Source: an uncultured Armatimonadetes bacterium (GTDB lineage: Bacteria; Armatimonadota; Hebobacteria; Hebobacterales; Hebobacteraceae). Taken from it: a stretch of 64,000 bases of DNA. A program made the position numbers and the translations under genes. The notes beneath the pieces were generated by a model that saw only the letters and a program-made list of their open reading frames with translations, was not told the DNA's origin and searched no databases. Below, piece after piece: positions 2,610 to 43,969 of this stretch (the stretch's first letter is position 1; every line of letters starts with the position of its first letter). The stretch covers positions 2,528,001-2,592,000 of the forward strand of contig OY970296.1 in the NCBI GenBank assembly GCA_963716175.1, written 5' to 3'.

Positions 2610-2676
2610 CACCGGGAGGGGATCTCAGCACTCTCGCAACCGGGGTGGGCATAGGCGCCAATCCGCTACGCTTCTG

Positions 2677-7194: not shown

Positions 7195-7196
7195 CC

Positions 7197-9310: not shown

Positions 9311-9361
9311 ACAGAGGGCGGGCATGCTTCTGCCCGCCTGATTGACCGGGAAGGACAACGC

Positions 9362-27418: not shown

Positions 27419-28180
27419 GTGGCCCTGAAGATAGCAGTTGCCGGCAAAGGTGGGGTGGGGAAGACGACGGTGAGCGCGGCTCTCGCTCAGTCGCTGCGGC
27501 GCGCTGGCGAGCGGGTGCTGGCCGTGGATGCGGATCCCAACAACTGCTTGGGGCGAGCGCTGGGCTTTGCGGAGGAACGGCTAAGCGGGGCGACCCCGCT
27601 CTCGGAGATGAAGGAGCTGTTGGCCGAGCGGGCCGGCACCGCGTCGGGAGGTGGCTTCTTCGCGCTCAACCCGCCGGTGGAGGACCTGCTTGCCGCCTAT
27701 CAACTGGAAAAGGATGGCATTTCGCTTCTGGTCATGGGGACGGTGGACGAGCCGGGCGCCGGGTGTGTGTGCCCGGAATCCGCGGTGCTGAAGGCGCTGT
27801 TGCGGCATCTGGTTGGGCTGGAGGCGACCTCCCTGGTGTTGGACATGGAGGCCGGGCTCGAGCACCTGGGGCGAGGCACCGCCCAGCACGTGGGGGCGCT
27901 GCTGATCGTGGCCGAACCCACCGCCGCCAGCGCGCGCACCGCGGCCCGCATCGCAGTGCTGGCCCGCGGGCTCGGGCTGCGCCTGCCGGGAGTGGTGGTG
28001 AACAAGGCGACGTCACCAGGAGACACCCAGAAGGTTCGTCCCTATCTGGAGGGGCTGGAGATCATGGCCACGCTGCCGCTCGATGTCTCGGTTGCGGCCT
28101 CCGAATCGGTGCCCTCGTCCGGGCCCCTGGTGCAGGCGGTGGATGAGCTCAGACAGCGCCTGGCCGCGCGGCTGAACTGA
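27419..28180 (+). CDS. cooC: CooC-type nickel insertion ATPase for CODH
   Basis: GKGGVGKTT, DADP, GCVCPE, DMEAGLEHLGRGT. Confidence 0.92.
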   Translation: MALKIAVAGKGGVGKTTVSAALAQSLRRAGERVLAVDADPNNCLGRALGFAEERLSGATPLSEMKELLAERAGTASGGGFFALNPPVEDLLAAYQLEKDGISLLVMGTVDEPGAGCVCPESAVLKALLRHLVGLEATSLVLDMEAGLEHLGRGTAQHVGALLIVAEPTAASARTAARIAVLARGLGLRLPGVVVNKATSPGDTQKVRPYLEGLEIMATLPLDVSVAASESVPSSGPLVQAVDELRQRLAARLN

Positions 28181-28181
28181 C

Positions 28182-28946
28182 ATGGGACAAGTGATTGCGG
28201 TGACTGGGAAGGGAGGGGTCGGCAAGACCACGGTCGCGGCACTCATGGTGCGGCTGCTCGTGGAGGCGAAACGGGGTGCGGTGCTTGCCGTGGATGCCGA
28301 TCCCAACCTCAACCTGAACGCGGCCCTGGGCGTGGAGGTGGCGGAGACGGTGGGCGATCTTCGCGAGGAGGGCTTGGTTCGCGCCTCTTCTCTCCCAGGG
28401 GGCATGGCGAAGAGCGAGTTTCTGCAGATGCGCATTCAGCAGGCCCTGGTCGAGTCCGCCGGCTTCGATCTGCTGGCGATGGGGCGACCGGAGGGGCCGG
28501 GCTGCTACTGCTTCGCCAACTCCATTCTGCGCGCGTGCGTGGATCGCATCGGCAAGCAGTACGCCTATCTGATCATTGACTGCGAGGCCGGGCTGGAGCA
28601 TCTGAGCCGGCGCACCGCAGGCGATGTGGACCTCCTGCTGCTGCTCTCCGACCCCAGCCTACGTTCCCTGGACACCGCGGTGCGGGTGCTGGAGCTGATC
28701 GAGGAACTGCACACCGGAGTCGCGAAGAAGGCCTTCGCCTTCAGCCGCGTCACCGACGGCCTGCCTCCGGAGCTGGCCCAGGCGGCGCGGGCGAGGGGGC
28801 TGCCGGATCCCTTCATCGTCCCAGAGGACGCCGAAGTAAGGGAGCTAGACTTGCGCGGCCTGCCCTTGGTCGGAGTGAAGGCCCAGAGCCCGTGTCTGGA
28901 GGCGGTGCGGACGATCATGCAGGCCACTGGGTTGCTGCCGGCCTGA
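28182..28946 (+). CDS. cooC: Second CooC/AcsF-type nickel insertion ATPase (ACS maturation type)
   Basis: GKGGVGKTT, MGRPEGPGCYCFAN, DCEAGLEHLSRRT. Confidence 0.92.
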   Translation: MGQVIAVTGKGGVGKTTVAALMVRLLVEAKRGAVLAVDADPNLNLNAALGVEVAETVGDLREEGLVRASSLPGGMAKSEFLQMRIQQALVESAGFDLLAMGRPEGPGCYCFANSILRACVDRIGKQYAYLIIDCEAGLEHLSRRTAGDVDLLLLLSDPSLRSLDTAVRVLELIEELHTGVAKKAFAFSRVTDGLPPELAQAARARGLPDPFIVPEDAEVRELDLRGLPLVGVKAQSPCLEAVRTIMQATGLLPA

Positions 28947-29095: not shown

Positions 29096-29257
29096 TATGC
29101 TTATTAGGGTTGCGATGAAGCCCGCCTGGCCCTGGGGCAGGCGGGTTCGCATGACCAACGGGGCCTGGCGCTTGGTGGCCCGCTTGGTCACCGTCCTCAT
29201 CGCGGCCACCCCGAGCGCGGTGTTGGGGATTATCAGCGCGCGTGTGGGGAGAGAAAC
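29096..29257 (+). promoter_or_regulatory. Putative -10 (TATGCT) followed by a structured 5' leader of the CODH/Wood-Ljungdahl operon
   Basis: Three-helix junction readable by hand at 29108-29207, plus a hairpin at 29209-29228 before the RBS. Confidence 0.5.
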
Positions 29258-29448
29258 ATGTGCGAGTCCAAAGTCTTTCTGGCAACACCGGAGGGCGAGA
29301 AGCTGGTACTGGAGGAGGTGGCCGCGATCAGGCCGGAGGGGACGGCTACCGGCTGGTGACGCTGTTCGGTGAGCAGGCGCACGTCCGGGGCCGGATCAAG
29401 GAGATAGACTTGCTGCAGCACCGGGTCGTGCTGGAGGCGATGCCCTGA
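29258..29448 (+). CDS. cooT: CooT family nickel-binding protein; frameshift in a G run near 29340
   Basis: MCESKVFL...LVLEEVAAIRPEG, then GDGYRLVTLFGEQ...IKEIDLLQHRVVL in another frame. Confidence 0.8.
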
Positions 29449-29550: not shown

Positions 29551-30060
29551 TTGGCCAAGGCCATTGTGGTTGATGTCAATAAGTGCTATGCCTGCCTTGG
29601 CTGCGTGGTGGAATGCGCCTACCACCAGGCCCGGGCCGGTCAAGACGTATCCCTCAGCTCGGGGGTGCTGTCCTTCGCTGGCTGCGATGTGGTGGCAGTG
29701 GACAGAGAGCCGGTGCCGCTGGTGTGCAATCACTGCGAGGACGCCCCCTGCATGCGGGTCTGTCCCACCAACGCTATCAAGCGGGCGGCCGAGGGCGGGC
29801 CTGTGCTGCTGGAGGCGGAGCGCTGCATTGGCTGCCGGGCCTGTGCCATGGCCTGCCCCTTCGGCATGATCCAGATGCGCCCGGACGGCGTCACCGCGAT
29901 CAAGTGCGACCTGTGCGCAGATCGTACCGCCAAGGGCTTGCCGCCGGCCTGCGTCGCCGCCTGCATCACCGGCGCCCTGGAGCTGAGAGAGATAGACGAC
30001 GTGATCGCCGAGGCGAGAAAGCGCGCCGCGGCCTTGCTGGCGCGCAGCGGGAAGGGGTGA
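29551..30060 (+). CDS. cooF: CooF-like 4x[4Fe-4S] electron transfer protein
   Basis: CYACLGCVVEC, CNHCEDAPCMRVCP, CIGCRACAMACP, KCDLC...PACVAAC. Confidence 0.85.
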   Translation: MAKAIVVDVNKCYACLGCVVECAYHQARAGQDVSLSSGVLSFAGCDVVAVDREPVPLVCNHCEDAPCMRVCPTNAIKRAAEGGPVLLEAERCIGCRACAMACPFGMIQMRPDGVTAIKCDLCADRTAKGLPPACVAACITGALELREIDDVIAEARKRAAALLARSGKG

Positions 30061-30097
30061 CCTGCGCGGCTCACTGGTTCGATCGGCGAGTAGTCCC

Positions 30098-30601
30098 ATG
30101 ACGATAGAGACCGCCCCTGATTACCGTGGTGCCGTCGAGGCCGTGATCGCAGTGTACGGCCGCGACCCGGGCTTCCTGATCCCGATGCTGCAGGATGTGC
30201 AGCGCGAGTTCGGATACTTGCCGGCCGAAGCCATGAGGACGATAGCCGAGCTGCTCGGGATTCCCGTGAGTCAGTGCTACTCCGTCGCGACGTTCTACAC
30301 CTCACTCAGCCTGGTCCCGCGGGGGCGGCACCTGATCACCCTCTGCCTGGGAACGGTGTGCTATCTGAAAGGGGCCAACGAGATTGCGGAGACCATTCAG
30401 CGGCGCCTCGTTGTCCAGGTCGGCGGCACCACCGCAGATCGCCTCTTCACCTATCAGCCGGTGAACTGCCTGGGGGCCTGCGCCCTGGCGCCGGTGATGG
30501 TGATAGACGAGGAGTATTTCGACAAGGTCAAGGTGCGCCAGGTGCCGGATATCCTGGCCAAGTATGCCAAGCAGGAGAATCCCCTTCGCGATGGTGACTA
30601 G
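30098..30601 (+). CDS. NuoE/HydC-like [2Fe-2S] subunit
   Basis: [32 protein letters not shown]. Confidence 0.92.
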
Positions 30602-32450
30602 ACAGCTCACAAGCGCAGCTGATCTCGCGCGTTGGCAAGATGAGATCAGTGGGCGAGCGGGAGAAGCGAAGGTCACGGTAACGGTGTGCCTCGGCACCGG
30701 CTGCGGGGCCAAGGGTGCGGCGCGGGTGATTGAGGCCTTGGAGGCAAAGGTCAGGGAGCTGAACGGCGACGCGCAGGTCAAGGTCAAGCCCACCGGGTGC
30801 CACGGCTTCTGCGAACGGGGGCCCATCGTAGTGGTCTCGCCCGGTGACATCTTCTACCAGAATGTGCGGGAGGAGGATGTCGCGGAGCTCGTCCAGGAGA
30901 CCATCCTGGGGGGCCGGGTGGTGGAACGCCTGCTCTATCAGGATCCGGTGACCGGCGAGAAGATCACCACCAGCCGGGGCATACCGTTCTACAGCAAGCA
31001 GATGCGGCTGGTGCTTCGGCACAACGGCATCACCGACCCGAGCCGGATCGAAGAGTACATCGCCGTGGGCGGGTACACCAGCCTGGCCAAGGTGCTGACC
31101 AAGATGACGCCGGAGGAGGTCATCGCGGAGGTGGACCTCGCCGGGCTGCGGGGCCGAGGTGGGGGCGGCTTCCCTACGGGCCGCAAGTGGCGCACCTGCC
31201 GGGAGGCGGAGGGCGAGCCCAAGTACGTCATCTGCAACGGCGACGAAGGAGACCCCGGGGCCTTCATGGATCGCTCCATCATGGAGGCCAATCCCCATGC
31301 CGTGATCGAGGGGATGATCATCGGAGCGTATGCGATCGGGGCCCACCAGGGCTACCTCTACGTGCGAAACGAGTACCCGCTTGCGGTCCGCCGCTTGAGG
31401 AAGGCCTTAGACGACGCGGGTGACCACGGCCTCCTCGGCGAGGACATCCTGGGCAGTGGCTTCTCATTCGACATCCGCATCAACCGCGGGGGTGGAGCGT
31501 TCGTGTGCGGCGAGTCCACCGCGCTGATGGCCTCGCTCGAGGGCAGGCCGGGCGAGCCCCGGGCGAAGTACGTCCATACCGTAGAGGCGGGGCTCAACAA
31601 TAAGCCTACGAATCTGAACAATGTAGAGACCTGGGCAAACGTGCCCCTGATCATCGAGCGGGGCGGGAGATGGTTTGCTTCCATCGGCACGGAGCGAAGC
31701 AAGGGCACGAAGGTGTTCTCTCTGGTAGGGAAGGTGCGCAACACCGGGCTGGTCGAGGTGCCCATGGGCATGACCCTGCGTGAAATCGTGTTTGACATCG
31801 GCGGCGGGATCCCCGATGACAAGGCCTTCAAGGCGGTGCAGACTGGCGGCCCCTCCGGGGGCTGCATCCCGGCCCAGTTCCTCGACACCCCGGTTGACTT
31901 CGACGAGCTCTGGAAGCTGGGCTCGATGATGGGCTCCGGCGGGCTGATCGTGATGGATGAAGACACCTGCATGGTGAATGTGGCCCGCTATTTCCTGGAC
32001 TTCCTCCAGAAGGAATCCTGCGGCAAGTGCACCGCCTGCCGGGAGGGGGTGGCGCAGATGCTGCATCTGCTCAACGGCATCTGCGCGGGCAAGGGCCGGG
32101 AAGGCGATGTCGAGCTGCTGCTCGAGCTCTGCGACATCCTGGAGGATGCCGCGCTCTGCGGGCTGGGCAACACCGCCTGCAACCCGGTGCGGAGCACGAT
32201 CCGGTACTTTCGCGACGAGTACGACGCCCACATCCGGGAGCGCCGCTGCCCGGCCCGGCAGTGCCGCGGGCTGTTCCGCTACGAGATCGTCGCCGAGAGC
32301 TGCAGGGGCTGCGGGATCTGCCTCAAGGAATGCCCGCAGGAGGCAATCTCGGGCGAGGCCAGGAAGCCGCACACCATTGACCAGAGCAAGTGCATCAGCT
32401 GCGGCCTGTGCTTCGCGGCCTGCCGCTTCGACAGTATCGCCAAGGTGTGA
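30591..32450 (+). CDS. NuoF/HydB (BfuB)-like FMN/NAD-binding subunit with N-terminal [2Fe-2S] and C-terminal 2x[4Fe-4S]
   Basis: [51 protein letters not shown]; two C-terminal ferredoxin motifs. Confidence 0.95.
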
Positions 32451-32485
32451 ACAGGGACGGGCGCTGATACGGGTGACATCTGCCG

Positions 32486-33253
32486 ATGGCTAAGCTGACC
32501 ATAAACGGACGTGAGGTCGAGGCGAAGGAAGACCAGAGCGTGCTGGAGGTGGCGCGGGCCGCGGGGATCTACATCCCGGCCTTGTGCTATCACCCCGCGG
32601 TCTCGCCCTATGGCTCCTGCCGGCTGTGTCTGGTGGAGGTGAAGGCGGGTAACCGCACCCGCATGGTAACCTCGTGCTGCTATCCCGCGCGAGGCGGGAT
32701 TGAGGTGTTGACGGACACGGAGAAGGTGCAGAGAACCAGACGCGGGGTGATGGAGCTGCTGCTGGCGCGGGCGCCGGGGTCAGCTTCGCTGCGCGCGCTG
32801 GCTGCTTCCCTGGGCGTGACGGAGCCGCGCTTCCCGACCCTCACCCGGGGCGAACGGGACTGCATTCTCTGCGGGTTGTGCGTCAATGTCTGCCGAGAGG
32901 TGATGGGCGCGGCGGCAATATCGTTCGCCAACCGAGGGGTTGATCGCACGGTGGTGGCCCCTTTCCTGGAGTCATCGGAGGCCTGCATGGGGTGCGGCGC
33001 CTGCGCCGCGGTGTGCCCGATGGGAACGGTTGAGCTTCGCTGGACGGAAGCAGAGGTCGAGGTCGCGCCCTTCAAGAACCGGGTGCCGCTGATGCGCTGC
33101 CGGAACTGCGGGCGGCCCATCACCGGCGCGCCCTTCAGCCAGCAAGTTGAAGGGCGCCTGGGAGATAAGCTGGCCTCGGCCGTCACCTTGTGCACGGCGT
33201 GCAAGCGCAGTGCCGCCGCGCTGGCCGCGAAGAAGGCAGCAGTGGCAAGCTGA
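32486..33253 (+). CDS. NuoG/HydA N-terminal-like Fe-S subunit without a catalytic domain
   Basis: IPALC...GSCRLC...TSC; CILCGLCVNVC; CMGCGACAAVCP; C-terminal CxxC...CxxC. Confidence 0.88.
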   Translation: MAKLTINGREVEAKEDQSVLEVARAAGIYIPALCYHPAVSPYGSCRLCLVEVKAGNRTRMVTSCCYPARGGIEVLTDTEKVQRTRRGVMELLLARAPGSASLRALAASLGVTEPRFPTLTRGERDCILCGLCVNVCREVMGAAAISFANRGVDRTVVAPFLESSEACMGCGACAAVCPMGTVELRWTEAEVEVAPFKNRVPLMRCRNCGRPITGAPFSQQVEGRLGDKLASAVTLCTACKRSAAALAAKKAAVAS

Positions 33254-33337
33254 ACCTGAAGTGGTGGGGCTGGCATGCCTATGCCAGCCGGGCGCGCATA
33301 CAGAGACATGCCCGCCCTACGGAGGAAGAGTGAGACG

Positions 33338-35269
33338 ATGAGTGATAGCAAGAATCGGATGAGAGATGCGGCGAGCCAGGAAGCCTTGGAGGAGGCCTGC
33401 GAGCGCGGCATTCTGACCGCCCTGGATCGCTACGAGCTGCAGCAGCCCAGCTGCAAGTTCGGGCAGGAGGGCATCTGCTGCCGCATCTGCAACATGGGGC
33501 CGTGTCGAGTGATCAGCACGGCTACGGAGGGAAGGTTGGGAGTGTGTGGCGCCAGCGCCGACACCATTGCCGCCCGCAACCTGCTGCGCATGATCGCGGG
33601 CGGAGCCGCGGCGCATTCCGACCATGGTCGAGATGTGGTCAACACCTTCATCCTGATGGCCAAAGGGGAGGCGAAGGATTACCGCATCAAGGATGAGATC
33701 AAGCTGCGCCGGCTGGCCCAGGAGTACGGGGTGGCCATGGATGGCAAGTCTCCGCTCCAGATCGCGCAGGGCCTGGGCGAGCGCATGCTGGCCGAGTTCG
33801 GTCAGCAGGAGGGGGAGCTGAGGACGCTGGCGCGGGCCCCGCAGCGCCGCCAGCGGCTGTGGCGGGAGCTGGGAGTGGCCACCCGGGGCATTGATCGAGA
33901 GATCGTAGAGAGCATGCACCGTTCCACCATGGGGGTGGACGCAGATTACAGAGACCTGATGCACCACGGCATCCGCACCGCGCTGGGCGATGGCTGGGGC
34001 GGCTCCATGATCGCCACCGACTTGCAGGACGTGATGCTCGGCTCGCCCGTGCCGGTGCGGGCCAAGGTCAACCTCGGGGTGTTGAGCGAGGACAAGGTCA
34101 ACATCCTGGTGCACGGGCACGAGCCTATTCTCTCGGAGATGGTGGTGGAGGCCTCCCGAGATCCGGAGCTGCTGAAGCTGGCGGAGGAGAAGGGGGCCAA
34201 GGGTATTCAGCTCAGTGGCATCTGCTGCTCCGCCAACGAGGTATTGATGAGGCAGGGGATTCCGGTAGCGGGGACGTTCCTGCAGCAGGAGCTGGCCCTG
34301 GCCACCGGCGCGGTGGAGGCGATGGTGGTGGACGTGCAGTGCCTGATGCCCTCCTTGCCGCAAGTGGCAGCCTGCTCGCACACCGAGCTCATCACGACCT
34401 CGCCCAAAGGCCGCATGCCGGGGGTGCGCCACATCGAGTTCGAGGAGAAGCGCGCGCTGGAGGTGGCGCGGGAGATCGTCCGGATCGCCATCGAGAACTT
34501 CCCGAACCGCAACCGGGAGACCGTTCACATCCCCAAGCAGTCCATGGACCTGGTCGCCGGTTTCACCACCGAATATGTCTTCCGGTTGCTGGGGGGGCGC
34601 TTCCGGCCCTCCTACCGGCCTCTCAACAATGGGATCATGGAGGGCCGTCTGCGCGGCGTGGCCGGGGTAGTGGGATGCTGCAACCCGAACTTCCAGCCGG
34701 TCGACTCCGGGCACATCGAGATGGTGAAGGAGCTGATCCGCAACGACGTGCTGGTGGTGCAGACGGGCTGCTCGGCCATCGCCTGCGCCAAGGAGGGACT
34801 GCTGGTGCCGGAGGCGGCCGCCCAGTACGCGGGGCGCGGCCTCCAGGAGATCTGCGAGGCCGTGGGCATCCCGCCCGTGCTGCACGTTGGCTCCTGCGTT
34901 GATAACAGCCGCATCCTGATCGCCTGCTGCGAGATGCTGAGAGAGGGCGGGCTGGGCGAGGATATCAGCGACCTGCCGGTGGCGGGGGCGGCGCCCGAGT
35001 GGATGTCGGAGAAGGCGGTGTCGATCGGGATGTACGTGGTGGCCTCGGGCATCTTCACCGTTTTCGGGACTCCGCTGCCGGTGCGGGGGTCGCAGGCGCT
35101 CTACGATTATCTGACCAAGGAGATGGAGCAGGAAGTGGGGGCGGCCTGGGCCTTCGAGAGGGACCCGGTGGCGGCCGCCCGGTTGATGATCGCGCGCATA
35201 GACGAGAAGCGCGCGGCCCTGAAGCTGCGACCCATGCTGTATGAAGCGCGAGAGCTAGTGCCTGCCTAG
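33338..35269 (+). CDS. cooS: Anaerobic Ni,Fe carbon monoxide dehydrogenase catalytic subunit (CooS/AcsA)
   Basis: CKFGQEGICCRICNMGPC, HGHEP, GICC, DVQC, TGC, GSCVDNSR, WMSEKA. Confidence 0.97.
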   Translation: MSDSKNRMRDAASQEALEEACERGILTALDRYELQQPSCKFGQEGICCRICNMGPCRVISTATEGRLGVCGASADTIAARNLLRMIAGGAAAHSDHGRDVVNTFILMAKGEAKDYRIKDEIKLRRLAQEYGVAMDGKSPLQIAQGLGERMLAEFGQQEGELRTLARAPQRRQRLWRELGVATRGIDREIVESMHRSTMGVDADYRDLMHHGIRTALGDGWGGSMIATDLQDVMLGSPVPVRAKVNLGVLSEDKVNILVHGHEPILSEMVVEASRDPELLKLAEEKGAKGIQLSGICCSANEVLMRQGIPVAGTFLQQELALATGAVEAMVVDVQCLMPSLPQVAACSHTELITTSPKGRMPGVRHIEFEEKRALEVAREIVRIAIENFPNRNRETVHIPKQSMDLVAGFTTEYVFRLLGGRFRPSYRPLNNGIMEGRLRGVAGVVGCCNPNFQPVDSGHIEMVKELIRNDVLVVQTGCSAIACAKEGLLVPEAAAQYAGRGLQEICEAVGIPPVLHVGSCVDNSRILIACCEMLREGGLGEDISDLPVAGAAPEWMSEKAVSIGMYVVASGIFTVFGTPLPVRGSQALYDYLTKEMEQEVGAAWAFERDPVAAARLMIARIDEKRAALKLRPMLYEARELVPA

Positions 35270-35358
35270 CGTGGAGCCGCGCCGGAGCGCGGAGCACCCG
35301 GTTGCCTGCTGGCAGCCTGCCGGTACCATCATATACTCAAAGGGGCGAGGAAAGGAAC

Positions 35359-37053
35359 GTGAAGAGCGACCTGGAGATTGCACAAGCCGCCAGCATGCGG
35401 CCCATCTTGGAGATCGCTGACCATCTCGGCATTGCCGAAGATGAGCTCGACCTGTATGGGCGCTACAAAGCCAAAGTTCATCTCAACATCCTGGAGCGGC
35501 TGAAGGGCCGCCCCAATGGCAAGTACGTAGACGTCACCGCCATCACTCCCACCCCCCTGGGCGAGGGCAAGACGGTGACCACCATCGGGGTATCGCAGGC
35601 GCTGGGCTATCTGGGCAAGAGGGTGATCACCTGCATTCGCCAGCCCAGCCTGGGCCCGGTGTTCGGGATCAAGGGGGGCGCGGCCGGCGGGGGCTACGCC
35701 CAGGTAGTGCCGATGGAGGATTTCAACCTTCACCTCACCGGCGATGTTCACGCCGTGGGCATTGCCAACAACCTGCTGGCGGCGATGATAGACGCTCATC
35801 TCAAGCACGGCAATCAGCTCAACATTGACCCGCGCACCATCTCCTGGCGGCGAGTGATAGACCTCAACGACAAGTGGGGCGTTTACAACATCGTCGCCGG
35901 CCTGGGCGGCGAGAACCGCGTGCCCCGGGAGACGGGGTTCGACATTACAGTGGCGAGCGAGGTGATGGCGATCCTGGCGCTGGCCACCAGTCTGCAGGAC
36001 CTGCGCCAGCGGCTGGGCCGCATCGTCATCGGCTCCACCTACGCCGGCGAGCCGGTGACGGCCGAGCAACTCCAGGCGGCCGGCGCCATGTGCGTGCTGC
36101 TGCGGGACGCGCTGATGCCTAACCTGATGCAGACTCTGGAGAACACGCCGCTGTTCGTGCACGCCGGGCCCTTTGCCAATATCGCCCATGGCAACTCCTC
36201 CATCGTCGCCGACCAGATCGCTCTCAAGCTCGCCGATTACGTGGTTACCGAGTCCGGCTTTGGGGCGGACTGCGGGATGGAGAAGTTCTTCAATATCAAG
36301 TGCCGCGTCAGTGGCCTGGCCCCCAACTGCGTGGTGATCGTGGCCACCGTGCGGGCCCTCAAGATGCACGGCGGCATTGGCACCGTGAGGCCCGGCCGGC
36401 CTCTGCCCAAGGAGTTGATCGAGGAGAACCTGCCGGCCCTGGAGAAGGGCGGCGAGAACCTGGTCAAGCACATCGAGAACGCCCGCCTGTTCGGGGTGCC
36501 GGTGGTGGTGGCGGTCAACCGCTTCACCCAGGATACCGAGCCTGAGATCGAGCTGATCCAGAAGATGGCGGTGGGGGCGGGAGCAGAAGGCGCCTATGTA
36601 TCAGAGGTCTGGGCGCATGGAGGCAAAGGCGGCACCGAGCTGGCTCAGGCCGTGATCGCGGCTTGCGAGAAGCCGACCGACTTCAGGCTCCTCTACCCGG
36701 ACGACCTGCCCATCAAGCAGAAGATCGAGACCATCGCCACCAAGGTCTACGGGGCGGATGGCGTGGACTACGACGCGGTGGCCGAGCGGAAGATCGAGGC
36801 CTTCACCAAGTGGGGGCTGGACAAGCTCCCCATCTGCATGGCCAAGACCCACCTCTCACTCTCCCATGACTCCAACCTGAAAGGCCGGCCGCGGGGCTTC
36901 CGGGTGCCGGTGCGAGACATTCGACCCAGCGCGGGCGCGGGGTTCCTCTACCCGCTCTGCGGCGCCTTCACTACCATGCCCGGGCTGCCCAGCCGGCCCG
37001 CGGCAGTGGTTGTTGACGTAGACAAAGATGGGAAGATCGTGGGGCTGTTCTAG
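35359..37053 (+). CDS. fhs: Formate--tetrahydrofolate ligase
   Basis: TPTPLGEGKT, GIKGGAAGGGYAQV, HAGPFANIAHG, CMAKTHLSLS, TMPGLP. Confidence 0.98.
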   Translation: MKSDLEIAQAASMRPILEIADHLGIAEDELDLYGRYKAKVHLNILERLKGRPNGKYVDVTAITPTPLGEGKTVTTIGVSQALGYLGKRVITCIRQPSLGPVFGIKGGAAGGGYAQVVPMEDFNLHLTGDVHAVGIANNLLAAMIDAHLKHGNQLNIDPRTISWRRVIDLNDKWGVYNIVAGLGGENRVPRETGFDITVASEVMAILALATSLQDLRQRLGRIVIGSTYAGEPVTAEQLQAAGAMCVLLRDALMPNLMQTLENTPLFVHAGPFANIAHGNSSIVADQIALKLADYVVTESGFGADCGMEKFFNIKCRVSGLAPNCVVIVATVRALKMHGGIGTVRPGRPLPKELIEENLPALEKGGENLVKHIENARLFGVPVVVAVNRFTQDTEPEIELIQKMAVGAGAEGAYVSEVWAHGGKGGTELAQAVIAACEKPTDFRLLYPDDLPIKQKIETIATKVYGADGVDYDAVAERKIEAFTKWGLDKLPICMAKTHLSLSHDSNLKGRPRGFRVPVRDIRPSAGAGFLYPLCGAFTTMPGLPSRPAAVVVDVDKDGKIVGLF

Positions 37054-37055
37054 CA

Positions 37056-37700
37056 ATGGCCTACTTGGAAGAACCGCTCAAACACTACTCCGACGCGCTG
37101 GCCAGCGGCAGGCCTACACCTGGCGGAGGGAGCGCGGCCGCCCTGGTAGGCGCGTTGGGGGCGGCCCTCAACAGCATGGTCGCCAACTTCACCGTGGGCC
37201 GGGAGAAGTTCGCCGCGGTGGAGGCAGAGGTGCGGGAGTTGCTGGCGGAGAGCGAGCGCCTGCGGGCCGACCTGGAGCGGCTGACTCAGGCCGACACCGA
37301 GGCCTACGGCATGGTCTCCCGCGCCTACCGGATGCCTCGGGAGACGGAGGAGGAGAAGGCGGCGCGAGAGGCGGCGATCCAGGAGGCGCTGAAGGCGGCG
37401 GCCGAAGTGCCCCGACAGGCGGTCGGCGCCTGCCGCGCCGTGCTGAAGATCGCGGCCCAGCTCCTGGAGAAGGGCAACCCGAACCTGATCACCGATGTGG
37501 GTGTGGCTGCGAAGTTCGCGCTGGCCGGCATGGAGTGCGCCACTCTGAATGCCGAGATCAACTTGATCCACATCAAGGATAGCGCCTACGTGGAGGCCGC
37601 CTTCAGCTCCATGAAGCCGCTGATCGAGGAGGGAGAGAGGTTGGCGCAGCAGGTGTGGCACGAAGTGATCCATCGCATGAGGCAGGGGGTGAAGAAATGA
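37056..37700 (+). CDS. fchA: Formiminotransferase-cyclodeaminase C-terminal-like / methenyl-THF cyclohydrolase
   Basis: LASGRPTPGGGSAAAL, GNPNLITDVGV, LNAEINL. Confidence 0.9.
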   Translation: MAYLEEPLKHYSDALASGRPTPGGGSAAALVGALGAALNSMVANFTVGREKFAAVEAEVRELLAESERLRADLERLTQADTEAYGMVSRAYRMPRETEEEKAAREAAIQEALKAAAEVPRQAVGACRAVLKIAAQLLEKGNPNLITDVGVAAKFALAGMECATLNAEINLIHIKDSAYVEAAFSSMKPLIEEGERLAQQVWHEVIHRMRQGVKK

Positions 37701-38620
37701 GCGCGCGACTATTGGAGGGCAGGCCCATTGCCGAGGCCATCCGCGGGAAGGTGAAAGCGGATGTGGAGGCCTTGAAGGCAAAGGGGGTCACGCCCAAGCT
37801 GGTGGCAGTGCTGGCCGGCGACAACCCCGGCGCCAAGTTCTACGCGGGCGCCCAGGAGAAAGCCTGCCAGGAAGTCGGGATCGCCTACGAGCTGGAGCAG
37901 CACCCCAGCGAGATCACCCAGGCCGAGCTGGAGGCGGTCATTGCACGGCTGAACGGGGAGGCCTCGGTGCACGGGATTCTGCTGCTCATGCCGGTGCCCA
38001 AGGGGCTGAACGGCCCAGCCGCCCAGGCCCTGATTGATCACCGCAAGGACGTGGACGGGGTGAGCCCTGCGAACCTGGGCCGGGTGGTGCTGGGGCAGCC
38101 CCGCCTGGCGCCTTGCACGGCCATGAGCGTGATCGAACTGCTCCGCTCCAGCGGTGTGGACGCCTATGGCAAGGAGGCGGTGGTCGTGGGCAGCAGCGAG
38201 ATCGTGGGCAAGCCGGTGGCGCTGCTGCTGATGGACAAGTACATCACCACCGATGCCGGCGGGAAGACCGACAGGCTCGCCGGTGCCACCGTCACCGTAT
38301 GTCACATCGGCACCAGTGAGCGGGGAGACCTGGGTGCTCACACCCGCCAGGCCGATATCCTGGTCACCGCGGTGGGGGTGAAGCCCGGCCTGATCTCAGG
38401 CGATATGATCAAGCCGGGCGCGATCGTGATAGACGTGGCCACCATCCGGGTGAAAGACGCGGAGACCGGGAAAACTAACACCTACGGCGACGTGGATTTC
38501 GCGGCCGCCAAAGAGAAGGTGGCGGCGATCACGCCGGTGCCTGGTGGAGTGGGGGTCGTAACCACCGCCATCCTGCTGCGCAACACGGTGGAGGCCGTGC
38601 GCTGGCAGCATGGCCTGTAG
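37697..38620 (+). CDS. folD: Methylene-THF dehydrogenase/cyclohydrolase
   Basis: KDVDG, PCTA, VVGSSEIVGKP, GDVDF, ITPVPGGVG. Confidence 0.95.
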   Translation: MSARLLEGRPIAEAIRGKVKADVEALKAKGVTPKLVAVLAGDNPGAKFYAGAQEKACQEVGIAYELEQHPSEITQAELEAVIARLNGEASVHGILLLMPVPKGLNGPAAQALIDHRKDVDGVSPANLGRVVLGQPRLAPCTAMSVIELLRSSGVDAYGKEAVVVGSSEIVGKPVALLLMDKYITTDAGGKTDRLAGATVTVCHIGTSERGDLGAHTRQADILVTAVGVKPGLISGDMIKPGAIVIDVATIRVKDAETGKTNTYGDVDFAAAKEKVAAITPVPGGVGVVTTAILLRNTVEAVRWQHGL

Positions 38621-38700
38621 GGGCGTGATTCATCACGCCCTCATCGGGGGACGCAATGGATTGCGCCCCCACGGAAGGTAATCGCGAGGAGCGAAGTCGA

Positions 38701-39360
38701 ATGACCATTAGCGAAGCCAAGTCCCTGGAGGAGATCCTCCGCAGCCTGGAAGGGCAAGGCAAAGTGTTCCTGGTCGGCTGCAGCGAGTGTGCCACGGTGG
38801 TGCAGGTCGGAGGCGAAGACCAGCTCAAGGCGATGGCCGAGGAACTCACCCAGCATGGCAAGACCGTCACCGGCACGCTGGTCGCCGACCCCGGCTGCCA
38901 TCTGCTCAACCTCAGGCGAGAGTTCCGGGAGCGCCGGCAGGAGATCGAGGGCTCGGACGCCATGCTAGTCCTGTCGTGTGGGACCGGAGCGCAGACCGCG
39001 GCCCAGGCCACCGCCAAGCCCGTGCACGTCGGCACCAACACCCTCTTCCTGGGGTGCGTGGAGCGCTTCGGCCAGTTCCGCGAGTACTGCTCGGCGTGCG
39101 GGGACTGCAGCCTGGAGCAGACCGGCTACATCTGCTCGGTCACCCGCTGCTCCAAGGGCCTGCAGAACGGGCCCTGCGGGGGCACGACGGCGGAGGGAAA
39201 GTGCGAGGTCAATCCCGAGACAGACTGCGGCTGGCTGCTGATCTACAACAAGCTCAAGGAGCAGGGCGGGCTGGACTCCCTCAAGACCTACCAGCCCCCG
39301 AAGGAAGCGCTGCCGCACCCGGGGCAGCGAACGCTCTCGCGGGAGGGGAAAGAGGAATGA
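38701..39360 (+). CDS. metV: Methylene-THF reductase small subunit MetV
   Basis: VGCSECAT, SCGTG, CSACGDC...CSVTRCSKGLQNGPCGG...CEV...CGW. Confidence 0.92.
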   Translation: MTISEAKSLEEILRSLEGQGKVFLVGCSECATVVQVGGEDQLKAMAEELTQHGKTVTGTLVADPGCHLLNLRREFRERRQEIEGSDAMLVLSCGTGAQTAAQATAKPVHVGTNTLFLGCVERFGQFREYCSACGDCSLEQTGYICSVTRCSKGLQNGPCGGTTAEGKCEVNPETDCGWLLIYNKLKEQGGLDSLKTYQPPKEALPHPGQRTLSREGKEE

Positions 39361-40271
39361 GCCTGCGCTCCGTCCTGCAATCCGATAAGTTCATCGTTAC
39401 CTCGGAGGTGGGCCCTCCCAAGGGCACCAACATGGGGCACGTGTTGGAGGAGGCCAAGCTGCTGGTCCCGCTGGTGGACGGGATCAACGTGACCGACATC
39501 CAGGCCGCGGCGATGCGCATCGGCTCCATGGCCACCTGCCACCTGATCAAGGACCTGGGCGGAGAGCCGGTGCTGCAGATGGTCTGTCGGGATCGCAACC
39601 GGCTGGCCCTGCAGAGCGACCTGCTGTCGGCCTGGGTGCTGGGGATCGAGAACGTGCTCTGCCTCACCGGGGATCACCCCACCCTGGGGGACCACAAGGG
39701 TGCGAAGGCGGTCTATGATCTGGATTCGGTGCAGCTTCTGAAGGTGGCCAAGGGCCTGAACGAAGGCCACGATATGATGGGCAATGAGCTGGATGGCAAG
39801 CCGGACTTCTGCCTTGGGGCAGTGGTGACCCCGGGCGGCAACCCGGTGGAGATGCAGATCATGAAGCTGGAGAAGAAAGTGGAGGCGGGGGCGGAGTTCG
39901 TCCAGAGCCAGGCGGTCTATGATGTGGCTGCCTTCGCCGAGTTCATGGAGCAGGCGAGTCAGATCAAGGTGCCGGTGCTGGCCGGCATCGTGCTGCTGAA
40001 GTCGGCCGGCATGGCCCGTTACATGAACAAGAATGTGGCTGGCGTCACCGTGCCGGACGATCTGATCAAGGAGATGGCCCAGGCCGGGGAGGCGGACAAG
40101 GCGGCGAAGGCGGAGGGGAAGAAGGGCGGCCATCAGGTGAAAGCCAGCATCGAGATCGCCGCCCGGCTGATCCGGGGCCTGAAGCCGCTGTGCCGGGGCG
40201 TCCATCTCATGCCCCTGGGCTGGGGGCACCAAGTGCCGGCTGTGCTCAAGGCGGCGGATCTGCGGGCATAA
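39357..40271 (+). CDS. metF: Methylenetetrahydrofolate reductase
   Basis: TSEVGPPKG, NVTD, CRDRNRLALQSDL, LTGDHP, YDLDS. Confidence 0.95.
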   Translation: MSLRSVLQSDKFIVTSEVGPPKGTNMGHVLEEAKLLVPLVDGINVTDIQAAAMRIGSMATCHLIKDLGGEPVLQMVCRDRNRLALQSDLLSAWVLGIENVLCLTGDHPTLGDHKGAKAVYDLDSVQLLKVAKGLNEGHDMMGNELDGKPDFCLGAVVTPGGNPVEMQIMKLEKKVEAGAEFVQSQAVYDVAAFAEFMEQASQIKVPVLAGIVLLKSAGMARYMNKNVAGVTVPDDLIKEMAQAGEADKAAKAEGKKGGHQVKASIEIAARLIRGLKPLCRGVHLMPLGWGHQVPAVLKAADLRA

Positions 40272-40312: not shown

Positions 40313-42548
40313 ATGTCAAGGATAGTCGCTGCTGCCGCTATACGCGGGTCACATGTGGTCGTGGCCGAGGCCGAGGAGAAGCTGGAGGCCGCCATCGCAA
40401 AGCACGGGGAGAAGCAGCGTCTCGAGTTTCCCGAGACGGCGTTCTTCCTGCCCATGGCAAACGCACTGCTGGGCCTGGATGTGAGCACCCTGGGGGAGGC
40501 GCGGCAGGTGCTGGAGACGGCCCAGAGTCTGCTCACCGACGAGCCCTCAGAGCAGGTCTGGCTGCCCTACCTCTCCGGCGCCCTGGACGCGGGCATCGCC
40601 ACCCTGCTGGGCGAGGAGCTGATCAAGGCGCTCGCTACCTGGAGGGAGAGGAGCCGAAGGAGGGCTGGCACGGCTTCATCTCCGACACCATCCTGCGCAC
40701 GCTGGGCATCCAGCTGGTGGACGGCCGGCTGCCCGGCTTCGCCGCCATCGTGGGCGCGGCGCCCGGACACCGAGACCGCGGTGAACGTCGATCCGGGAGC
40801 TGCAGAAGCGCAACATCCTCACCTTCCTGATCGGCAATCACCGAGGGCCGCACCATGCGCGACCAGCTGATCGAGGCCAAGGTGCTTCCCAAGGACGCCA
40901 CCGAGACCGAGGACGGCGATCTGAAGAAGGCCTGGTGGGGCCGCTACATCGTCCCCCTGGGCCCGGACACGGAGTCCATCATCTATGCCCTGAACTGGGC
41001 GATCCGCGGCGCGCTCACCTTCGGCGGTCACAAGAAGGGCCAGTGGAGAGAGTGCCTGAACTACACCCGGGCCCGCATCTTCGCCTTCGGCCTGGGCCTG
41101 GGCGACCTGGACGACCTGAAGTACGCCAGCGGCGCCGGGGCGATCAACATGGGCTTCCCGGTGATCGCGGACACGGAGATCCCGGAGATCCGGCCCACCG
41201 GCGTCTGCACCTACGAGGAGCTGGTGCGGGAGCTCGACCACCGGCGCATCGTAGAGACCAGTGTCGAGGTGCGCGGGGTCAAGGTCACGGTCTCCAAGAT
41301 CGACATTCCGGTGCCGGTGGCCGCCGCCTTCGAGGGAGAGACCGTGCGCCGCGAGGAGATGCAGGTCCAGTTCGGCGGCAAGTACAGCGCCGCCTTCGAG
41401 TACCTGCGCATGCGGCGAGATGGACGAGGTCGAGGACGGCAAGATCGAACTGATCGGGGCGGACTGCGACAACGTCGAGGTGGGCGGGGCCATGCCCCTG
41501 GGCTTCCTGATCGAGGTGGCCGGTCGCAAGATGCAGAAGGACTTCGAGCCCATTCTGGAGCGGCAGGTGCACACCATCGTCAACCACGCCATGGGCGTGT
41601 TCCACATGGGCCAGCGCAACCTGACCTGGGTCCGGATCAGCAAGGACGCCTTCAAGGCCGGCTTCCGCCTGCGGCACTTCGGCGAGCTGTTGCGGGCCGA
41701 ATACCTGCAGAAGTTCCCGGCCCTGGTGGACAAGGTGCAGGTGACCATCTTCACCGACGAAGGGGCAGATGCCGCCAGTGCTGGCTGAGGCCCGCCAGGT
41801 CTGCGCAGGCGCGCGACGCGCGCGTGGCCGGGATGACCGACGAGAGCGTGGACACCTTCTACTCCTGCACTCTCTGCCAGTCCTATGCCCCCAACCACGT
41901 CTGCGTCATCAGCCCGGAGCGGCTGGGGCTCTGCGGCGCCTACAACTGGCTGGACGGGCGCGCCGCCTACGAGATCAACCCGGCCGGCGCCAACCAGCCG
42001 GTGGTCAAGGGCCGGGTGATAGACCCGGTGAAGGGGCAGTGGGAGGGAGTGAACGAGTTCGTCTACCAGACCTCCAACAAGAGCGTGGAGCGGTTCAACG
42101 CCTACTCGCTGATGGAGGACCCCATGACCTCCTGCGGCTGCTTCGAGTGCATCATGGCCATCCTGCCCGACCTCCCGGCCAGGCGCACGGGGTGATGATC
42201 GTGAACCGGGAGTACCCTGGCATGACTCCTTGCGGCATGGCCTTCACCACCCTGGCGGGAAGCGTCGGCGGCGGCCTCCAGACCCCGGGCTTCCTGGGCA
42301 TCGGTCGGCTCTACATCGTCAGCCGCAAGTTCATCTCGGCCGAGGGCGGGCTGCCTCGCATCCTGTGGATGCCCAAGGAGCTGAAGGAGGCGCTCGCCGA
42401 CGGAATCAAGGCGCGGGCGGAGCAGTTGGGGATACCGGATCTCTACGATAAGATCGCGGACGAGTCCGTGGCCACGGATATCGAGCAGCTCACTCCCTGG
42501 CTCCAGGAGCGGGACCATCCGGCGTTCAAGATGGAACCTTTGCTGTAG
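40313..42548 (+). CDS. acsB: Acetyl-CoA synthase (bacterial AcsB), broken by at least seven frameshifts as assembled
   Basis: MSRIVAAAAIRG, FYSCTLCQSYAPNHVC, ERLGLCGAYNWLD, PMTSCGCFE, TPCGM...GGGLQTPGF; the pieces alternate between reading frames. Confidence 0.92.
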
Positions 42549-42584: not shown

Positions 42585-43928
42585 TTGGGCCTAACAGGTA
42601 TAGACATCTTCAAGCAGCTCCCGAAAACGAACTGCCGCGAGTGCGGGCAGCCGACCTGCCTCGCCTTCGCCATGAAGCTGGCGCAGAAGCAGGCGAGCCT
42701 GGATCAGTGCCCCTACGTCTCAGAGGAGGCGAAGGCGGCGCTGGCCGGGGCCTCGGCCCCGCCCATCAAGCTGGTCACCATCGGCGCCGGGGAGCGCAAG
42801 CTGGAGGTCGGCAACGAGACCGTGCTCTTCCGCCACGACGAGACTTTCTACCATCCCACCGGGCTGGCGGTGCTGGTGGACGCCGCCCTGCCAGAGGCGG
42901 AGCTGGCGGCCCGCATCACCGGGGTAGGGGAGGTGGAGTTCGAGCGCGTGGGCCAGAAGCTGCGGTTGGACGCGGTGGCGGTGAAGGGCGATGGGGAGGC
43001 CTTCGTGAAAGCCGCCGGTGTGGCCGCGGAGAAGTCCGCGGTGCCGGTTATCCTGATGAACGAGGACCCGGCGGTGATGGGGCAGGCGCTCTCCACCTAT
43101 GCCGGAAAGCGCCCGCTTATCTACGCCGCGACCGCGGACAATGTCGAGGCCATGGCAGCTCTCGCGAAACAGCACTCCTGCCCGCTGGCGGTGCGAGGCC
43201 GGGACCTGGCCTCACTTGCCGAGCTCTCCGAGAAGGCCCAGGCCGCCGGCGCCACCGACCTGGTGCTCGATTCGGGCGCCCGCACCACCGCCGAGGTGCT
43301 GGCCAACGAGACCGCCATCCGGCGGGCGGCGATCCGGAAGCGGTTCCGGCCCCTGGGCTTCCCTACCATCACCTTCACGGAGGCCGCCGACGCCGCGCAG
43401 GAGGCGCTTCAGGCCTCCACCTACATCATGAAGTACGCTGGCCTGGTGGTGCTGGGCCGGATGGAGGCCTGGGAGCTGCTGACCCTGATCACCCTGCGCC
43501 AGAACATCTTCACCGACCCTCAGAAGCCCATCCAGATCGAGGAGGGGCTCTACCAGATCGGCACCCCGGATGAGAACTCGCCGGTGTTGGTCACCACCAA
43601 CTTCTCCCTCACCTACTTCACGGTGGAGGGGGATGTGGAGGCGAGCCGGGTGCCGGCCTGGGTGGTGGTGGTTGACACCGAGGGCACCTCGGTGCTGACC
43701 GCGTGGGCGGCCGAGAAGTTCACCGCCGCGGTGATCGCGCAGAAGGTGAAGGCCTGCGATGTGGGCAGCAAGGTCAAGCATCGCAAGCTGATCATACCCG
43801 GTCATGTGGCGGTGCTGAGCGGCAAGCTGGAAGATGAGCTGGGGCAGGAATGGAAGGTGATCGTGGGCCCGCGGGAGTCTTCCGGCATCCCGAGCTTCCT
43901 GCGGACCTCCTGGTCGGCCCAGGGGTGA
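42585..43928 (+). CDS. acsC: Corrinoid iron-sulfur protein large subunit
   Basis: LPKTNCRECGQPTCLAFAM, RQNIFTDPQKP, TTNFSLTYF, SVLTAWAA. Confidence 0.97.
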   Translation: MGLTGIDIFKQLPKTNCRECGQPTCLAFAMKLAQKQASLDQCPYVSEEAKAALAGASAPPIKLVTIGAGERKLEVGNETVLFRHDETFYHPTGLAVLVDAALPEAELAARITGVGEVEFERVGQKLRLDAVAVKGDGEAFVKAAGVAAEKSAVPVILMNEDPAVMGQALSTYAGKRPLIYAATADNVEAMAALAKQHSCPLAVRGRDLASLAELSEKAQAAGATDLVLDSGARTTAEVLANETAIRRAAIRKRFRPLGFPTITFTEAADAAQEALQASTYIMKYAGLVVLGRMEAWELLTLITLRQNIFTDPQKPIQIEEGLYQIGTPDENSPVLVTTNFSLTYFTVEGDVEASRVPAWVVVVDTEGTSVLTAWAAEKFTAAVIAQKVKACDVGSKVKHRKLIIPGHVAVLSGKLEDELGQEWKVIVGPRESSGIPSFLRTSWSAQG

Positions 43929-43969
43929 GCGGCCGCACAAACCCAGGAGGCCGACGACGGTGCGGTGTG

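Follow-up and report, generated by a model that had tools for sequence, protein, structure and literature searches.

Gene organization of the locus

The window analyzed here is the whole stretch of 64,000 nucleotides from the genome of an uncultured Armatimonadetes bacterium (contig OY970296.1, positions 2,528,001 to 2,592,000; G+C content, approximately 66%). It contains a trio of genes, bfuC, bfuB and bfuA, which encode a module of the electron-bifurcating Bfu family and are located between cooF and cooS, the latter being the gene of the catalytic subunit of a Ni,Fe-CO dehydrogenase (CODH). A first-pass annotation of this DNA had placed a HydC/HydB/HydA-N trio between cooF and cooS, and all five genes were found at the coordinates that it claimed, on the + strand (Table 1). 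The trio is inside one Wood-Ljungdahl operon carrying both methyl- and carbonyl-branch genes: cooC-cooC-cooT-cooF-bfuCBA-cooS is followed by fhs-fchA-folD-metV-metF and then by acsB-acsC-RACo-acsD, all on the + strand. From cooF to fhs, the genes overlap or are separated by gaps of 22-38 nt. No terminator-like site was found on the + strand between 26000 and 45900. Three promoter-like sites were found in the same region, compared with 1.7 ± 1.3 in shuffled sequences, and none of them was upstream of cooF. Rfam gave no match at the gathering threshold between 26000 and 50000.

As the same annotation had proposed, the CODH seems to be the most likely partner of the module. This is suggested by the position of bfuCBA within the cooC-cooC-cooT-cooF-[bfuCBA]-cooS array, by the linkage of cooF to bfuCBA in all related loci that could be compared, and by the lack of a rival partner, as described below. 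The cooS product scored 637.5 bits with TIGR01702, for which the cut-off is 478. The first ~36 residues of the bfuB open reading frame (ORF) and the first ~20 of the cooS ORF were not aligned with homologues, and the true starts of both genes may be further inside the ORFs.

Table 1. Genes of the Wood-Ljungdahl operon and the evidence for their assignment (positions are those of the window)
Gene	Position	Strand	Evidence
cooC-like P-loop ATPase gene 1	27419-28180	+	PF01656 CbiA, AAA_31, ParA-type matches
cooC-like P-loop ATPase gene 2	28182-28946	+	PF01656 CbiA, AAA_31, ParA-type matches
cooT-like gene, frameshifted	~29252-29436	+	tblastn with L142 CooT-domain protein (PF10133)
cooF, 169 aa	29551-30060	+	PF13247 Fer4_11, E 6.7e-22
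bfuC (HydC/NuoE-like), 167 aa	30098-30601	+	PF01257, E 4.6e-48, residues 14-156
bfuB (HydB/NuoF-like), 628 aa	30564-32450	+	PF01512, PF10589, PF10531, partial PF01257, Fer4
bfuA (NuoG-N/HydA-N-like), 255 aa, Type 2	32486-33253	+	PF13510, PF00111, PF12838, PF14697
cooS/acsA, Ni,Fe-CODH catalytic subunit, 664 aa	33275-35269	+	PF03063, E 6.6e-169; TIGR01702
fhs	35302-37053	+	PF01268
fchA	37056-37700	+	PF04961
folD	37655-38620	+	PF02882/PF00763
metV	38656-39360	+	PF12225
metF	within 38787-40271	+	PF02219
acsB, several frames	40313-42548	+	Pfam; frame pieces compared with intact AcsB
acsC	42585-43928	+	Pfam
RACo-like activase + AAA_26 domain, one ORF	43850-46900	+	Pfam
acsD	46982-47947	+	Pfam

The BfuB and BfuC subunits

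Judged by its sequence, the trio consists of a genuine Bfu-type BC core and a Type 2 A subunit. In the survey of Schut et al. (2022; PMC9304861), BfuB is defined by the domains IPR011538, IPR019554, IPR019575 and IPR017896, BfuC by IPR002023, and BfuA by at least one 2Fe-2S ferredoxin-type domain together with a 4Fe-4S ferredoxin-type domain. The counterparts of all these domains are among the Pfam matches of the three window proteins (Table 1): PF01512, PF10531, PF10589 and Fer4 in BfuB, PF01257 in BfuC, and all four listed matches in BfuA. The pairing of the InterPro entries with the Pfam entries is the one that we assume to hold.

The features of the B subunit listed in the first-pass annotation were all present in the Pfam matches and in the alignments with PDB chains. 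Counted on these alignments, the GAFM, FVCGE and GGPSG motifs occupy residues 232-235, 313-317 and 428-432, respectively. The N-terminal [2Fe-2S] cysteines are at positions 42, 47, 79 and 83, with the partial PF01257 match at residues 35-112, and the two C-terminal [4Fe-4S] motifs are in the Fer4 region of residues 574-625. Cys469, Cys507 and the H556-x5-C562-x4-C567 set were aligned with C438, C476, H525, C531 and C536 of NiFe-HydB (7t2r_B), the five residues that ligate the B2 cluster (Schut et al., 2022). The histidine of the B2 site is absent in just 8 of the 1558 BfuB sequences considered by these authors, and is not present in the non-bifurcating homologues that they describe. Both the His and its Cys partners were found in the window BfuB. 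That this set of features marks a bifurcating HydB/BfuB agrees with the same survey, in which it divides the bifurcating from the non-bifurcating homologues.

At residue 507 the window BfuB has Cys, and so does the NiFe enzyme, in which B2 is a true [2Fe-2S] cluster. In contrast, Thr occupies the matching position in the FeFe enzymes and in WorB of the tungsten-containing WorABCSL, and zinc was seen there (Schut et al., 2022; Feng et al., 2025, PMC12318220). In this respect, the window BfuB differs from WorB and matches the five-ligand [2Fe-2S] B2 site of NiFe-HydB.

The best PDB match of BfuB was 9mqx_B (828 bits, E 3.9e-248), followed by 7t2r_B (784 bits) and then by FeFe HydB chains, whereas chains of the non-bifurcating NuoF scored 391 bits at most and covered residues 150-564 alone. 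BfuC was closest to 9mqx_C (E 1.8e-40), and next to HydC of bifurcating hydrogenases. The BC core resembles those of NiFe-HydABCSL and FeFe-HydABC (7t2r, 7q4v, 8a6t and 7p5h) over the full length, with scores of 677-784 bits and B2 ligands identical with those of NiFe-HydB. The difference is in the A subunits: those of the hydrogenases have the A3 and A5 clusters together with a hydrogenase domain or partner. Assignment of the trio to the NuoEFG module of complex I was rejected, since BfuB has additional Fe-S domains at both termini and BfuA has neither PF10588 nor PF00384. Furthermore, BfuB was below all three NuoF equivalog cut-offs (477 vs 559, 384 vs 749 and 367 vs 389 bits).

The BfuA subunit and CooF

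BfuA is predicted from its sequence to have one [2Fe-2S] cluster (A1) and two [4Fe-4S] clusters (A2 and A4), and no A3 cluster. The first-pass annotation had described an A subunit without an H-cluster, NiFe or molybdopterin domain, and none of these is among the Pfam matches of the 255-residue protein. Absence of the His-ligated A3 motif is also evident: there is no PF10588 match, and a gap is found opposite the A3 stretch of 7t2r_A. The genome's own NuoG, unlike BfuA, carries PF10588. The CxxC...CxxC tail is real as well, C205, C208, C236 and C239 being invariant in all 24 aligned family members. These traits had been taken to be unusual, but they are not: both the absence of A3 and the Cys tail either define Type 2 BfuA and WorA or are known from them.

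Type 2 Bfu enzymes, which comprise the Wor-, Bam-, Por- and Codh-Bfu classes, have a BfuA without A3 and A5, and their extra subunits feed electrons via A4 (Schut et al., 2022). The window BfuA conforms to this type, having neither the A3 motif nor an alpha/beta C-terminal domain. A cryo-EM structure is available for one such enzyme, WorABCSL of Acetomicrobium mobile (PDB 9mqx; Feng et al., 2025). Its WorA subunit (247 residues) is without A3 and has a zinc finger formed by four Cys residues that bind A5 elsewhere. The C-terminal helix of WorA docks the polyferredoxin WorS, so that the S4 cluster is within 10.7 Å of A4.

WorA of 9mqx was the best PDB match of BfuA (E 5.9e-45; identity, ~36%). 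In the AlphaFold2 model of BfuA, the mean pLDDT was 72.8, the tail residues 181-250 had values of 73-91, and a terminal helix was formed by residues 237-254. The top Foldseek match of this model was again 9mqx_A (E 5.1e-19), which was also the only chain aligned across residues 1-254 (Z 16.1; 226 aligned residues; root mean square deviation, 7.0 Å). By analogy, the four tail cysteines are putatively zinc-finger-like, forming the counterpart of the zinc finger in WorA. An A5-like fifth Fe-S cluster was set aside on this analogy.

CooF matched WorS (9mqx_E, E 7.8e-20). It has four [4Fe-4S]-type Cys motifs followed by a helix-like C-terminal extension, and its 16 cysteines (C12/15/18/22, C59/62/67/71, C92/95/98/102 and C119/122/134/138) are invariant among nine orthologues. 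In these properties it corresponds to WorS, a polyferredoxin with four [4Fe-4S] clusters that likewise ends in a helix (Feng et al., 2025). WorABCSL therefore provides the best PDB match for each of the A, B and C subunits as well as a match for CooF, and shares with the window the short A subunit without A3, the four tail cysteines and the C-terminal helix. The catalytic subunits are different: a tungsten aldehyde oxidoreductase in WorABCSL and a Ni,Fe-CODH in the window.

It should be added that the C-terminal residues of BfuA (…KRSAAALAAKKAAVAS) and CooF (…KRAAALLARSGKG) are alike, which recalls the matching C-terminal helices of WorA and WorS. This likeness is a weak hint and might be due to chance, since both tails are Ala-rich and the genome has a G+C content of 66%.

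Conservation of the cooF-bfuCBA cassette

BfuA-family loci were collected with one genome per species, and 80 were kept. The window proteins were mapped onto them by tblastn, and Pfam was applied to the genes left unexplained. In 13 of the 16 best-matching of the 80 loci, bfuCBA directly adjoins cooS and/or acsB-acsC-RACo-acsD. The remaining three end at or just past bfuA and have cooF upstream; one of them (L020) also has fhs and cooC. The metagenome-assembled genomes of these 16 loci are labelled Pirellulales, Phycisphaerae, Sedimentisphaerales, Planctomycetales, Planctomycetia, Planctomycetota, Anaerolineales, Spirochaetaceae, Spirochaetales and, in one case, "Epsilonproteobacteria". Three lower-ranked loci (L060, L072 and L076) are likewise linked to CODH/acetyl-CoA synthase (ACS) genes. 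In all, Planctomycetota, Spirochaetota, Chloroflexota, Firestonebacteria and other groups were found to have cooF-bfuCBA next to cooS/acs genes.

A full-length short BfuA was found in 13 of 401 sampled genomes of the same phylum. Ten of these are linked to cooS/acs genes, one is cut by a contig end, one belongs to a cassette standing alone (G115), and one is of another type. Where the upstream side of bfuCBA was covered, cooF was present in 19 of 19 related loci (nine species loci and ten of the same phylum). The conserved unit is therefore the four-gene cassette cooF-bfuC-bfuB-bfuA, and the constant neighbours of bfuCBA are cooF, cooS and acs genes only.

The remaining loci are of other Bfu types, in which BfuA is fused to HdrA-like, GcvH, TPP-enzyme or FrhB domains; some have glutamate-synthase-like or HdrA/MvhD neighbours. 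The L069 locus has the order WorS-WorL-bfuCBA, as confirmed by Pfam, and L087 and L091 are similar by tblastn alone.

These neighbourhoods bear on another partner suggested in the first-pass annotation, namely the methylene-tetrahydrofolate reductase MetVF, to which the module would supply electrons from NADH and ferredoxin. The metV and metF genes are in the same operon, 5 kb downstream, and MetFV-type reductases of acetogens use NuoF-like or Hdr-like partners. Nevertheless, this role seems very improbable, because in most of the related loci bfuCBA is beside cooS/acsB without metVF, and because the constant neighbour is cooF, not metV. Where a Bfu locus does adjoin metV (L062 and L071), BfuA is of a different type, fused to an HdrA-like domain, and BfuB belongs to a different clade.

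The placement of BfuB in a phylogeny, for which the first-pass annotation had asked, was obtained from our own quick maximum-likelihood tree of 67 sequences (SH-aLRT support without bootstrap; midpoint root). The window BfuB fell into a clade of 13 members with an SH-aLRT value of 100, consisting of 11 CODH/ACS-linked loci and two truncated loci with cooF. A Wor-linked clade is near it. A second, small CODH/ACS-linked pair (L025 and L072) and an archaeal set were placed elsewhere in the tree.

Three Bathyarchaeia loci (L039, L049 and L078) encode, within cdh operons, a fusion of BfuA with an FrhB domain of the F420 type. In L039 (5104-14461), the order given by Pfam is cdhA, BfuA-FrhB, bfuC, BfuB-CdhB, cdhC, cdhD and cdhE: BfuB is fused to the epsilon subunit of CODH, CdhB (PF02552), in a protein of 814 residues. 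In L049 and L078, the BfuB frames have 823 residues and the same neighbours (tblastn). To judge from these sequences, the BfuB::CdhB fusion gives independent and direct evidence, at the level of the genes, for the ability of a Bfu core to join a CODH/ACS complex. No paper describing this fusion was found in the literature search.

In two loci of Pirellulales/Planctomycetota, L012 (4532-6499) and L024 (3476-6037), extra genes are located between cooF and bfuC. They encode a small thioredoxin-like [2Fe-2S] ORF product (weak PF01257) and a PAS-domain protein, and in L012 also a SpoIIE/PP2C phosphatase; all three are absent from the window. These inserts suggest redox-sensing regulation of the cassette.

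Other redox partners encoded in the genome

The genome is a single contig of 4.56 Mb with a CheckM-type completeness of 90.85%, and absences given here mean "not found". The CooS of the window was the one match to PF03063 (CODH/HCP) in the whole genome. This means that, if the ACS works, this CooS is its CODH.

No distal partner for the trio came to light. There was no match in the genome to PF02906 (FeFe hydrogenase) or to PF03116 (Rnf/Nqr), and no formate dehydrogenase was found, the PF00384 matches being only NuoG and an ActB-like protein adjoining an NrfD-like gene. The single NiFe hydrogenase, presumably group-3b-like, lies elsewhere and has its own Fer4_22 and FAD/NAD-binding subunits. 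A FeFe hydrogenase, a formate dehydrogenase and Rnf were rejected as candidates, and the refuting condition named in the first-pass annotation, a distal formate dehydrogenase or hydrogenase bound by the trio, found no candidate in the genome.

The second NuoF of the genome belongs, together with a NuoG of the usual kind, to a complete nuo operon ~114 kb upstream. Two complex-I-type operons were observed, at L147 (G000:C1:2349000-2366000) and L009 (G000:C1:2438000-2456000). One of the two includes nuoEFG, with NuoG in two ORFs. The second operon, which comprises nuoA, B, C, D, H, I, J, L, M and N but no nuoEFG, may draw its electrons from ferredoxin. In addition, the genome has four POR_N matches and one PFL-like match; the PFL-like gene could be a source of formate.

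Comparison with known systems

The idea of a bifurcating CODH, put forward in the first-pass annotation, had already been published as a prediction. Codh-Bfu is one of the Type 2 classes of Schut et al. (2022), in whose account it is an uncharacterised class of four Firmicutes sequences in BfuB clade 49. As in the window, bfuABC genes are interleaved there with genes of CODH and a [4Fe-4S] protein, and CO/CO2 is the proposed third substrate; the contiguous order cooF-bfuC-bfuB-bfuA-cooS agrees with such a gene cluster. The two arrangements are different in detail. The Codh genes of Schut et al. are between bfuB and bfuA and are read as a stand-alone CO oxidiser, whereas the cooF-bfuCBA cassette of the window precedes the CODH gene in a CODH/ACS operon and is found in several phyla.

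Co-location of such genes has also been listed in surveys. Inoue et al. (2019, PMC6344411) list COG1034/1894/1905 (NADH:ubiquinone oxidoreductase-like) for the "WLP group" of Ni-CODH contexts, and nuoEF were reported near CODH/ACS genes in NPL-UPA2 (Suzuki et al., 2018, PMC6305446). In the parts of these two surveys that deal with the co-location, it is given without the Bfu reading, the subunit anatomy or a phylogeny. A 2026 eLife paper on CODH contexts (PMC13056359) has no mention of bifurcation, NuoE, NuoF, Bfu or HydABC. A full-text literature search for Codh-Bfu or a bifurcating CODH gave Schut et al. (2022) and one further paper of unassessed content. What is new here is the association, in several phyla, of a Type 2 Bfu cassette of the WorA type with the CODH of CODH/ACS; the Codh-Bfu class itself had been predicted.

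A third relevant system is the CooS-CooF-FNOR cluster (Whitham 2015 and Geelhoed 2016, cited in Inoue et al., 2019). Like the window locus, it combines CODH and CooF with a flavoprotein linked to pyridine nucleotide. In G106, a genome of the same family that shares its genus code with the cassette-bearing G160, such a cluster even occupies the same operon position: the order is cooS-cooF'-FNOR-fhs-fchA-folD (L144, 4922-8638), and no cassette is present. The FNOR of G106 is a protein of 431 residues composed of Pyr_redox_2 and Rubredoxin_C. FNOR differs from BfuABC in being a single FAD protein (Pyr_redox_2) without a ferredoxin-binding domain. The accompanying CooF' (146 residues, 39% identical) ends ~10 residues past its last cluster motif, compared with ~26 in the window CooF.

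Proposed electron transfer and its alternatives

We lean toward the reading, which seems to be slightly on the probable side, that cooF-bfuCBA is the dedicated redox partner of the Ni,Fe-CODH of the operon, which would be the CODH of CODH/ACS, in an enzyme built like WorABCSL with CooS replacing the tungsten subunit. Electrons would leave CooS from the C-cluster via the B- and D-clusters and would enter the four [4Fe-4S] clusters of CooF, the proposed wire between the CODH and BfuA. The helix of BfuA might dock CooF in the manner of WorA and WorS. From CooF, electrons would pass to A4, A2 and A1 of BfuA, and then to the B1/FMN core of BfuB with C1 of BfuC. Here they would be split: NAD+ would be reduced at FMN, and ferredoxin, via B2, B3 and B4, at the two C-terminal clusters of BfuB. 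In the reverse direction, electrons from NADH and reduced ferredoxin would be merged and used for CO2 reduction at the C-cluster, for acetyl-CoA synthesis. We infer the physical binding by analogy with WorA and WorS, and the electron path, bifurcation and the direction in vivo are likewise inferred. Either direction is conceivable, because the genome has PFOR-type and PFL-like genes, glycoside hydrolases and two complex-I-type operons: the enzyme might be an acetogenic sink for NADH and reduced ferredoxin, or acetyl-CoA oxidation might give both carriers.

Several points weigh against a dedicated partnership. All 14 genomes of the same family have CooS at 65-86% identity, but a close BfuA is present in five only, and nine of the 14 carry the orthologous CooS without the cassette. 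In G169 and G058, cooT and hypothetical genes precede cooS-fhs-fchA-folD, and G220 has cooS-fhs, in each case with no cassette. In G115, the cassette precedes unrelated genes, and CooS is on another contig. Together with the FNOR swap in G106, these genomes mean that the cassette is an exchangeable accessory and not a fixed part of CODH/ACS. In addition, the confidence of the BfuA model is moderate (mean pLDDT as given above) and falls below 50 in the cluster regions, and indel errors of the assembly in acsB and cooT make the sequence noisy for claims on single residues. No purified or assayed Codh-Bfu enzyme was found, the literature searches having given the 2022 prediction only. Finally, Schut et al. 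(2022) ask if the Codh genes of these clusters give rise to true subunits of the enzyme or to a CODH that stands alone next to BfuABC.

The distribution within the family would also be expected if CooF-BfuABC were co-regulated with the CODH yet not bound to it, as a free-standing NADH/ferredoxin module such as an NADH-dependent ferredoxin reductase with some other third partner. A shared operon would then merely match redox supply to demand, as the separate location of the cassette and CooS in G115 and the nine cassette-free relatives would allow. Several related loci are in line with this as well, having PAS and PP2C regulators between cooF and bfuC and cooS either upstream or downstream. However, a Type 2 BfuA without a catalytic domain requires a third-substrate module (Schut et al., 2022), and the conserved neighbours that could provide one are only cooF, cooS and acs genes. 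No formate dehydrogenase, FeFe hydrogenase or WOR-type partner adjoins in the genome, and the archaeal BfuB::CdhB fusion joins the two systems in one polypeptide. For these reasons, a separate module is regarded as unlikely.

The occupant of the same slot in G106 leads to a further alternative. FNOR in this position is read as support for a role of the slot in linking CODH to pyridine nucleotide, and a non-bifurcating function fits it equally well. The enzyme might then be an NAD(H)-linked CODH like CooS-CooF-FNOR, for which ferredoxin is not obligatory and electrons pass from CODH to NAD+, or from NADH to CODH aided by low CO. CO oxidation is exergonic with NAD+ alone, according to the potentials in Table 1 of Schut et al. 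(2022). Retention in BfuB of the N-terminal [2Fe-2S] domain, the two C-terminal [4Fe-4S] motifs and the His-containing B2 site, which would be costly if unused, makes this alternative rather improbable.

Energetics of the proposed bifurcation

A dedicated bifurcating partner has to be considered also in terms of redox potentials. The CO2/CO couple has an E0' of -520 mV (Table 1 of Schut et al., 2022). Why a couple of this potential needs bifurcation is a question posed by these authors, who suggest very low CO. It is a further point against the preferred assignment: CO oxidation at -520 mV can reduce NAD+ and ferredoxin in uncoupled reactions, and it is not evident what bifurcation would gain unless CO is kept very low. 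With the physiological potentials of -280 mV for NAD and -500 mV for ferredoxin quoted in the same paper, the midpoint is approximately -390 mV. A Nernst estimate starting from -520 mV gave approximately -372 mV for CO2/CO at a CO2:CO ratio of 1e5.

In a broader and rather doubtful proposal, the whole CODH/ACS, and not a stand-alone CO oxidiser, is the third-substrate module of the Bfu enzyme. Trace CO channelled within the complex, between the C- and A-clusters, would put the CO2/CO couple near the NAD(H)/ferredoxin midpoint. Such an arrangement would have arisen at least three times, in the main bacterial clade, in the L025/L072 clade and in Bathyarchaeia with BfuB-CdhB, and would serve lineages without Rnf or bifurcating hydrogenases.

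If this is true, half of the electrons for the carbonyl branch of acetyl-CoA synthesis would come from NADH, and the cleavage of acetyl-CoA would give back NADH together with reduced ferredoxin. The cost of the Wood-Ljungdahl pathway lies in its carbonyl branch, as this branch needs electrons of very low potential. Models of the ATP yield of acetogens and acetate oxidisers charge it to reduced ferredoxin alone, and their balances would change. The broader proposal would also explain how the redox pools are balanced in Rnf-less, hydrogenase-poor Planctomycetota, Spirochaetota, Chloroflexota and Bathyarchaeia of sediments and wetlands, and would represent the first instance in which a multi-enzyme complex of carbon fixation incorporates a Bfu core. 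For expression and cryo-EM, the conserved cassette of four genes is a clear target.

Sequence quality and other genes of the window

The reading frame of acsB is broken into at least four pieces and that of cooT into two, which raises the possibility of a decaying locus, that is, of a pathway being lost and a module without present function. This seems extremely unlikely. Near-identical contigs were found in four public metagenome runs from four studies, and they differ by 1-nt indels at all four acsB break points; the indels are at 40635, 40761, 40789, 40844, 41417, 41767, 41804 and 42174. Most likely, therefore, the breaks in acsB are indel errors of the assembly and do not mark a pseudogene. 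In addition, cooF, bfuCBA, cooS, fhs, fchA and folD are full-length and conserved, and NuoG of the same genome is also split. The Wood-Ljungdahl pathway is probably intact. Among the public runs containing the acsB stretch, no RNA data set was listed.

The two cooC-like genes at the head of the operon are candidates for Ni-insertion chaperones of the CODH. The name CooC comes from the context: the proteins reached no CooC-specific profile cut-off, and cooC-like genes flank the cooS/acs genes in related loci (tblastn). The cooT-like gene between cooC and cooF, which we take to encode another Ni chaperone, has a reading frame broken by a 1-nt frameshift near 29341-29347. Compared with the CooT-domain protein of L142, positions 29252-29341 show 73% identity and 29347-29436 show 80%, in two frames. 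The ORF listed at 29242-29448 is one of these two frames and holds the second half of the gene only.

The RACo-like activase, with Fer2 and the middle and C-terminal RACo domains, continues into an AAA_26 P-loop domain in an ORF of 1016 residues. In relatives, a separate cooC-like gene follows RACo. The single ORF may be either a natural fusion or an indel artefact.

Upstream of the operon, the region 555-9161 has multihaem cytochrome c genes, a gene for a cytochrome c assembly protein, a cytochrome b561-like fusion and a cytochrome b/b6 gene. Genes of siroheme-decarboxylase-like and radical SAM/SPASM proteins are located at 9362-11575. The whole cytochrome/haem block (555-11575) suggests an anaerobic respiratory chain with alternative haem synthesis. 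The window also encodes DUF1559/N-methyl proteins, which are typical of Planctomycetota, and glycoside hydrolases.

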